64,000 nt of DNA. Source: Sulfolobales archaeon (GTDB taxonomy: Archaea > Thermoproteota > Thermoprotei_A > Sulfolobales > NBVN01). The stretch lies in NCBI GenBank assembly GCA_038841535.1, contig JAWBTQ010000005.1, forward strand, positions 1 to 64,000, given 5' to 3'. Every line of letters begins with the position of its first letter. Position 1 is the stretch's first letter. A program made the position numbers and the translations under genes. The notes under the pieces were generated by a model. That model saw only the letters and a list, made by a program, of their open reading frames with translations. It was not told the origin of the DNA and did not search any database. Below are positions 43,481 to 43,748 of the stretch, one piece after another.

Positions 43481-43537
43481 GGAGGGCGGCGGCCGAGGTC
43501 CAAAGCCCCGCATCCTTGGCCGCTAGACGACCCGGCT
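43481..43537 (-). tRNA. 5' half of tRNA-Gln(UUG) plus GC-rich trailer; candidate split tRNA
   Basis: AGCCGGG-TC-GTCT-AGCGGCCAA-GGAT-G-CGGGG-CT-TTG-G, then ACCTCGGCCGCCGCCCTCC. No T arm or 3' acceptor strand nearby. TATA-like AAAACTTATTTA upstream. Confidence 0.8.
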
Positions 43538-43748
43538 TCCACTAGCTTTTAGTATTTGAGGTAAATAAGTTTTGCCAGCCACGCCGACCTAGAGTTTAAC
43601 AAGAGAGTAGACTCTAGAGAGACTACACTACTACATGCTTAAGCTCTCTTACTACGTTATAAGGACTTACGTGCCAGCGGTAAGTTTAGTATCGAAGTTC
43701 GTGTAGCTATATGGAGTGCGATATATGTGCTGTCTAAGTTATGTTCTC

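Follow-up and report, generated by a model that had tools for sequence, protein, structure and literature searches.

Results

The tRNA-Gln(UUG) half-gene in the window

The window analysed here (the whole 64,000-nucleotide stretch C5:1-64000) belongs to G000, the assembly of a Sulfolobales archaeon (40 contigs, 1.56 Mb, 83.8% complete), and carries on its minus strand, upstream of a FEN-1 gene, a TATA-like box, a 24-nucleotide (nt) spacer, a 38-nt tRNA-like stretch and a GC-rich 19-nt trailer, in this order (Table 1). The tRNA-like stretch includes the 5' strand of an acceptor stem (AGCCGGG), U8-C9, a D arm (GUCU / AGCGGCCAA / GGAU), G26, the 5' strand of the anticodon stem (CGGGG) and the loop C32-U33-U34-U35-G36-G37, so that the anticodon is UUG and the tRNA specificity Gln; it is followed by the trailer in place of a variable loop, a T arm and the 3' strand of the acceptor stem. 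We estimate at about nine in ten the probability that this is the 5' half of a split (trans-spliced) tRNA-Gln(UUG) whose 3' half lies on contig C3 of the same assembly, and the half-gene is real and probably functional.

An earlier note, made from the letters of the window, had described an apparently undegraded minus-strand 5' half of tRNA-Gln(UUG) with a GC-rich tail, preceded by a TATA-like box about 25-35 nt upstream and without a 3' half in the window. The half and its tail were recovered at 43537-43500 / 43499-43481, the box was located in the sequence, and the absence of a 3' exon was extended to all of C5 (blastn-short). The 5' exon is present as a single copy in the assembly (blastn-short). 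Neither ARAGORN nor Rfam at its gathering thresholds calls a tRNA at the half-gene, only three other tRNAs being called in the window; the Rfam matches at E<=10 between 42000 and 45000 are three, all at chance level and none of them a tRNA. A 65-aa open reading frame (ORF) overlapping the trailer (43316-43513) was rejected as spurious, because its sequence is not conserved in the closest relatives.

Table 1 Positions of the half-genes, their parts and associated genes. Positions without a contig name are those of the window.
Feature	Position	Strand	Remarks
TATA-like box AAAACTTATTTA, candidate promoter	43562..43573	-	-36..-25 from the mature 5' end; read in the sequence
Spacer and short 5' leader, from TATA box to tRNA position 1	43538..43561	-	spacing typical of the genome's tRNA genes
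5' exon of tRNA-Gln(UUG), positions 1-37, AGCCGGG...CTTTGG, 38 nt	43500..43537	-	blastn-short and direct reading
Trailer ACCTCGGCCGCCGCCCTCC (A + C + CTCGGCCGCCGCCCTCC), 19 nt	43481..43499	-	pairs with the leader of the 3' half
First oligo-T run 3' of the trailer (TTTT), candidate transcription stop	43452..43455	-	read in the sequence
FEN-1 gene, XPG domains	41668-42726		
3' half of tRNA-Gln: 26-nt leader, positions 38-73, encoded CCA	C3:136097-136160		pattern search
3' exon of tRNA-Gln	C3:136123-136157		single copy in the assembly (blastn-short)
EndA genes (PF01974), two matches	C3:149393-149650 and C14:30090-30323		100 and 42.5 bits
RtcB gene (PF01139), one gene	C1:212415-213719		580 bits

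A 3' half with a complementary leader on contig C3

The whole assembly was searched for T loops preceding the acceptor strand CCCGGCT, and two matches were obtained: a tRNA-Cys and a stand-alone 3' half on C3, the partner for which a genome search had been proposed in the earlier note. The region C3:136069-136160 reads, in order, a TATA-like CCTTATAA, a spacer of about 20-21 nt, the leader GGGGGGTAGGCGGCCGAGCGGGAGAT and an exon (CCCCCG-TGAC-CGGGG-TTCGAAT-CCCCG-CCCGGCT-A-CCA); a GC-rich leader is thus found upstream of the 3' exon instead of a 5' half. Since C5 continues for about 43 kb downstream of the 5' half and C3 for 136 kb upstream of the 3' half, the two are not one gene with an ordinary intron.

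TATA-like words such as aaagcTTAtAAg / cttatttcacc precede the 43 other tRNA genes called by Infernal in G000, at about 25-37 nt before position 1. In the genus (ten genomes, G000-G009, including this assembly) such a word lies at the same place at the UUG 5'-half locus of 10/10 genomes, and one is present at all ten 3'-half loci. We infer that the box at the 5' half is a promoter; at the sequence level, both halves appear to have a promoter of their own, spaced as in the other tRNA genes of the genome. Archaeal RNA polymerase terminates at oligo-T, on which basis transcription of the 5' half would end at 43452..43455; T-runs also lie 10-40 nt beyond the trailer in other genomes of the genus.

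The leader core GGCGGCCGAG is exactly complementary to the trailer core CTCGGCCGCC, and this 10-mer occurs only twice in the 1.56 Mb, in the leader and on the strand opposite the trailer. The duplex of the G000 trailer and leader (17 base pairs (bp), one bulged A) has a computed energy of -38 to -39 kcal/mol, a value reached by 0/1000 shuffled trailers (-21.3 +/- 3.7 kcal/mol, best -36.8), and the cognate trailer-leader pairs of the ten genomes lie between -31 and -45 kcal/mol in 18/18 cases. The two strands co-vary. At helix position 8, G:C in most genomes, A:U is found in both 5' halves of G008 and in the UUG half of G009, and the CUG half of the latter has a G opposite the changed U, i.e. 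a wobble intermediate; position 10, C:G in most genomes, is U:A in G001 and G006 (both halves of each); and G003 and G004 have a compensated 1-bp insertion, with one extra base on both strands beside the junction. The trailers and leaders of three relatives outside the genus (G034, G032, G039) are unrelated sequences, each complementary to its own partner, and when a trailer is paired with a leader from another lineage, the duplex is weaker than its cognate one by 5 to 27 kcal/mol. Trailer and leader would therefore, by their complementarity, bring the two halves together.

The product joined in silico

Intact tRNA-Gln genes, of either anticodon, account for 0/45 ARAGORN calls (introns allowed) and 0/44 Infernal RF00005 calls in the assembly, and the intact tRNA-Gln(UUG) elsewhere that the earlier note had advised checking for was consequently found by neither program. 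The same holds for all ten genomes of the genus, one of which is 97% complete. When the halves are joined in silico, ARAGORN recognises them as a tRNA-Gln(ttg) of 76 nt whose cloverleaf is regular and includes an A1-U72 pair. The joined 73 nt show 0 differences from the intact tRNA-Gln(UUG), with its exons joined, in four further genera of this family (G010, G017, G019, G022), which makes a chance origin of the 5' exon untenable and is unlike a decaying fragment, which is not expected to stay perfect; from CUG genes they differ at 1-2 positions, one of them the anticodon base. Joined, the exons would provide the canonical tRNA that the genome otherwise lacks.

The predicted splice junction

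Intronless relatives read ...CT(T/C)TGG-CCCCCG..., so that position 38 is C and the split falls at 37/38, the canonical intron site. The earlier note had considered 37/38 or a junction near 43/44; the first of these stands and the second was rejected, the 3' half carrying C38 and CCCCG (39-43). A bulge-helix-bulge (BHB) motif can be drawn at 37/38 from standard pairs only (-67.7 kcal/mol): the anticodon stem CGGGG/CCCCG, a 3-nt bulge G36-G37-A, a 4-bp helix of C32-U33-U34-U35 with GGAG (two Watson-Crick and two G.U pairs with UUG, three and one with CUG), a 3-nt bulge A-U-C38 and, beyond it, a C:G pair, a bulged C, 10 bp, a bulged A and 7 bp. When the halves are co-folded under a cloverleaf constraint, the anticodon stem, the 4-bp helix and the A-U-C38 bulge are reproduced. 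In this model the 3' splice site is canonical and the 5' site somewhat relaxed. The two-subunit crenarchaeal (alpha-beta)2 endonuclease is described, in the portion of the source available, as able to cut non-canonical substrates and relaxed motifs (PMC5829648), and the relaxed 5' motif seems compatible with those that such enzymes accept. The two EndA genes of G000 (Table 1) would fit a two-subunit enzyme of this kind, the assignment of the subunits being our own from the sequences.

One 3' half and two 5' halves in most genomes of the genus

Both halves were used to search 41 relatives. The 5' and 3' matches lie on different contigs in 10/10 genomes of the genus, each of which has exactly one stand-alone 3' half. 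This single 3' half is accompanied by two 5' halves, UUG and CUG, in 8/10 genomes; G000 and G007 have the UUG 5' half only. The flanks of the CUG locus of the relatives are also missing from the G000 assembly, for which reason an assembly gap is the likelier explanation for the lack of a CUG half in G000. In G005 the UUG (L005, ~39.7 kb) and CUG (L057, ~15.7 kb) 5' halves, both on G005:C2, have an identical 38-nt upstream region (promoter and leader), together with different trailers and different, otherwise syntenic loci; the identity looks like gene conversion or a recent duplication.

A proposed pathway and its alternatives

The 5' half would be transcribed from its own TATA promoter as a leader, positions 1-37 and the 19-nt GC-rich trailer, and the 3' half from its own TATA promoter on C3 as the 26-nt leader, positions 38-73 and CCA. 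The leaders of tRNA precursors are cut off at their 5' side by RNase P, which would remove the short one here. Trailer and leader would anneal (17 bp, one bulge), the acceptor and anticodon stems would form across the two RNAs, and the BHB would thereby be placed at 37/38 (anticodon stem, G36-G37-A, the C32-U35/GGAG helix, A-U-C38). The splicing endonuclease, encoded by the two EndA-family genes, would cut both bulges, RtcB would ligate G37 to C38, and the product would be a normal tRNA-Gln(UUG). Across the genus, the same 3' half would also serve the 5' half with anticodon CUG. We infer this sequence of transcription, annealing, cleavage and ligation from the DNA of the halves.

Several observations weigh against a trans-spliced tRNA. 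Under the cloverleaf constraint, the fold of lowest energy has G37 paired to the bulged C; only one C:G pair and a bulged C separate the 5' bulge from the long helix; the central helix with the UUG half has two G.U pairs; and an unconstrained co-fold of the halves does not give the cloverleaf body. By the co-folding suggested in the earlier note, a BHB at 37/38 can be drawn, with a relaxed 5' side and a minimum-energy fold that shifts locally. With the assembly at 84%, an intact gene might lie in the missing part of G000, for this genome alone, and the CUG 5' half of eight relatives is absent from it. The only metatranscriptome containing the stretch (X12, 44% of the sampled words) shows neither the ends of the halves nor a joined product: its contigs cover 43510-43702 (exon and upstream region) and low-depth patches downstream, and none joins the C3 locus. 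The X12 coverage speaks neither for nor against expression, DNA carry-over being possible, and a joined form would be indistinguishable in that sample from intronless genes of other organisms. Loose ends leading from 43495-43500 into a 3' exon come from intron-poor genes of other organisms and are also present in DNA runs.

Among the other explanations, the one that survives best, at a very low probability, is a dead remnant (a pseudogene or the scar of an integration site), the working intact gene lying in the unassembled 16%. Partial tRNA copies are common at integration sites, the assembly is only 83.8% complete and tRNA genes are often absent from metagenome bins; this explanation would nevertheless have to accommodate the lack of an intact gene in all ten genomes of the genus, the nearly complete one included, an exon unchanged with respect to functional genes of other genera, a promoter box kept at 10/10 loci, an exon that stops exactly at the intron site and a trailer that co-varies with the partner's leader.

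Slightly less probable still is a half that is expressed and acts alone as a small RNA, as a tRNA-half-like regulator joined to nothing. Its own promoter and candidate terminator would suit such a role, and stable functional tRNA halves are known in other organisms, but this would leave three things unexplained: how strictly the half matches and co-varies with the leader of the 3' half, why no other source of tRNA-Gln is present, and the perfect conservation of the tRNA identity positions.

We regard it as very improbable that the halves are a single, ordinary cis-spliced gene interrupted by a very long intron, with the two contigs adjacent on the chromosome. The longer 37/38 introns in tRNA-Gln of relatives (97, 155, 724 and 755 nt in G015, G038, G020 and G040) speak for this possibility. 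Against it, a co-linear intron would exceed 170 kb. In G006 a 334-kb contig contains both 5' halves in its interior, and the 3' half lies at 304 kb of another; in the closed genome G034 the 3' half is upstream of a 5' half, on the same strand and 46 kb away; and the 3' half has a conserved TATA box of its own.

Each of eleven sequencing runs from five studies contains at least 94% of the sampled words of the stretch, and the source sample may be among these runs. Three DNA runs, each from a different study, have one contig spanning 42700-43525 with 0-2 differences and a second spanning 43510-44200. Since the contigs of three studies run through 43480-43525, the exon-trailer junction is not misassembled, and the breakpoint at 43480-43500 that the earlier note had asked to exclude was not found. 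The Logan contigs break inside the exon at 43510-43525, which is the behaviour of short-word assemblers at sequence common to many organisms. A chimera at 43480-43500 has next to no probability: conserved repeats such as tRNA exons can give rise to chimeric metagenome bins, and the Logan breaks fall in one such exon, but the junction is crossed in three other studies and the exon-trailer-FEN-1 arrangement recurs in 9 other genomes. A split tRNA-Gln with its partner on C3, as the earlier note had read the half, is the explanation we retain: a partner with a complementary leader is present, no intact gene was found and there is no assembly breakpoint.

Origin of the halves

All members of the genus have the UUG 5' half upstream of the FEN-1 gene, at a distance of about 650 to 1370 nt; in the window, the ~750 nt from trailer to FEN-1 (42727-43480) contain no ORF >65 aa and no recognised RNA family. 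A UUG 5' half was found at 0/74 FEN-1 loci of other taxa, the 3/77 positive loci all being of this genus, and no synteny between the UUG 5' half and the intact UUG genes of other genera was found. The neighbours of the 3' half are a small ORF and a DUF1512 gene, which also flank, in the same orientation, the intact tRNA-Gln(CUG) of G018 with its two introns and, in another orientation, the intronless CUG gene of G012 and G023. The leader ends in GGAG, as do 4/4 distinct CUG introns of sister genera; the UUG introns of these genera end in GAAG (3/5), GAGG (1/5) or GGAG (1/5). The 3' half thus appears to be the in-place remnant of a CUG gene. The two isoacceptors have identical 3' exons, which would have permitted the loss of one. 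The trailer starts with ACC, as do 4/5 of the 37/38 introns of UUG genes in sister genera, and the leader ends in GGAGA(T/A), most introns of sister genera ending in GGAGAA or GAAGA(A/T); the trailer presumably is the former 5' part of a 37/38 intron.

Various relatives have no intron at this site or one of 15-37 nt, and the longer ones named above complete the series. The 724-nt intron of G020, in an otherwise intact tRNA-Gln(UUG), contains an antisense 230-aa ORF with a LAGLIDADG domain (PF14528, E = 2e-6; L060:274-963 (+), G020:C22), and the 755-nt intron of the tRNA-Gln(CUG) of G040 (L067) contains a broken homologue of it, in two pieces with 33% identity. The two genera with these long endonuclease-bearing introns are a more distant one of the same family and one from another family. 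With the G020 ORF as query, tblastn found nothing in G000 (best E = 0.36, elsewhere on C3) and, over 67 other loci, matched only G020 and G040 themselves. A homing-endonuclease remnant was thus sought by tblastn beside the halves of the genus and none was seen near them, so that the link between the endonuclease and the split of this genus is only circumstantial. The series of no, short and long introns in relatives supports a late, derived origin of the split from an intron.

Distribution in the order

A survey of 251 genomes of the order was made with exact patterns, using as word the 19-nt end of the 5' exon. The word was found in 176/251 genomes, at <=60 nt from a 3' exon in 146 and without a nearby 3' exon in 30, a count that includes long introns as well as splits and misses variant exons. 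The genomes without a nearby 3' exon were: all 9 sampled of this genus; all 8 of family f11 (five genera); 10/13 with the word in family f6; and one each for G015 (the 97-nt intron), G247 and G208, the latter two by pattern match alone. G012, G023 and G033 seemed unpartnered in the survey and were intact by direct search with both halves. No match to the 19-nt word was found in the 38 genomes of family f13.

True separation of the halves was confirmed by coordinates in G034, G032, G039, G044, G069, G078, G117 and G054. In the closed genome G034 the two 5' halves are located at 102 kb and 963 kb and the single 3' half at 1009 kb; in the closed genome G032 only the CUG gene is split, its halves being 267 kb apart; G044, G069, G078 and G117 have two 5' exons and one 3' half on different contigs; and G054 has two 3' halves. 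The 3' halves of the coordinate-checked genomes have GC-rich leaders ending in GGAGA-N or GAAGA-N before C38. The stand-alone CUG 3' half of G032 (G032:C1 ~665.7 kb, L048) lies ~50 nt beyond the 3' end of another tRNA gene and may be co-transcribed with it rather than from its own promoter.

Tentatively, at somewhat less than even odds, we propose that the tRNA-Gln 37/38 intron is a recurrent breakage hot spot in this hyperthermophilic order: it would have given rise to separately promoted halves in at least four lineages (this genus, all 8 sampled f11 genomes, most of f6 and genus g21) with unrelated trailers and leaders, usually with one 3' half for the CAA and CAG decoders, the LAGLIDADG-bearing introns (G020, decayed in G040) or those of 97-755 nt being the intermediates. 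Were this so, split tRNAs would be repeated, stably inherited products of intron mobility, not relics of primordial half-genes, and the shared 3' half would force the two 5' halves to co-evolve.

Other tRNA genes

A tRNA-Leu(CAA) with an intron of ~25 nt lies at 40666-40775 (+) of the window; it is supported by Rfam (43.4 bits) and by intron-aware ARAGORN and missed by ARAGORN with default settings. Elsewhere in G000, C3:63346-63471 holds a probable tRNA-Trp(CCA) with two introns (Infernal, 19.9 bits), miscalled by ARAGORN as Ser(gga) with a 46-nt intron; the first of the two introns is similar to that of the tRNA-Lys(CUU) gene at C3:13174. The ARAGORN call of a tRNA-Arg(acg) with a 769-nt intron at C1:170796-171656 has no Infernal match and is probably false.

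Discussion

Split tRNAs are central to the debate on whether tRNA originated from two half-genes or splits are late accidents. The case described here adds an essential tRNA that appears split across a genus of uncultured hot-spring archaea, with clear covariation in the reuniting helix, and the sister genera keep the presumed precursor states: no intron, short introns and long ones. Standard tRNA finders report no tRNA-Gln in the genomes of this genus, so that the lack of an essential tRNA will be flagged in error by annotation pipelines and completeness estimates.

Split tRNA genes are rare, 29 genes in seven genomes being counted in the available part of a 2014 review (PMC4033280). In the portions of the published lists at hand, a split tRNA-Gln(UUG) is given only for Nanoarchaeum equitans, at 32/33, and the only splits given for Desulfurococcales are Asp(GUC) and Lys(CUU) (PMC3218864, PMC4390854, PMC4033280, PMC8450103, PMC7080975). 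We found no report of a split tRNA-Gln outside Nanoarchaeum in a literature search that left subscription papers uncovered, and supplements such as Additional file 1 of PMC3218864 could hold further cases. The remark in the earlier note that Gln was not known among the tRNAs split in Desulfurococcales agrees with this, although the isotype is not new, the Gln(UUG) of N. equitans being split as well according to the sections available (PMC3218864, PMC4390854).

One of the closest parallels is the split tRNA-Asp(GUC) of Aeropyrum pernix and Thermosphaera aggregans (Chan, Cozen and Lowe 2011), as far as it is described in the accessible part of PMC3218864: these organisms come from the same broad branch of archaea, their gene is divided at 37/38 into halves with promoters of their own and complementary, GC-rich leaders or trailers, and it was interpreted as a recent derivative of an intron-containing one, as here. 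The differences are that the isotype is Asp and the halves are ~160 nt apart, whereas here it is Gln and the halves are on different contigs, and that the Asp split was verified by reverse-transcription polymerase chain reaction and Northern blot, the present one being known from DNA sequence (PMC3218864). Unlike in those cases, the split here is fixed throughout a genus, and two anticodons share a single 3' half.

In N. equitans, tRNA-Gln(UUG) is likewise split (Randau et al. 2005, summarised in the parts available of PMC4390854 and PMC3218864), and Glu(UUC) and Glu(CUC) use one 3' half, as Gln UUG and CUG do in this genus (PMC4390854, as available). The phylum differs, however, the sharing there concerns Glu and not Gln, and the Gln split is at 32/33 and not at 37/38 (PMC3218864, PMC4390854, same portions); the two Gln splits are therefore not homologous. 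Caldivirga maquilingensis (Fujishima et al. 2009, via the passages available in PMC4390854 and PMC4033280) is a free-living crenarchaeon in which halves are also shared by synonymous isoacceptors and leaders resemble introns of related species. It differs in the isotypes (Gly, Glu, Ala), in having some tRNAs in three pieces (tri-split) and in belonging to another order (PMC4390854, PMC4033280, same passages). Close to the split gene are also the cis-spliced tRNA-Gln genes of the sister genera (G010, G017, G019, G022 and others), which have identical exons and the same 37/38 junction; their exons are 15-20 nt apart in one transcript, whereas here they belong to separate genes.

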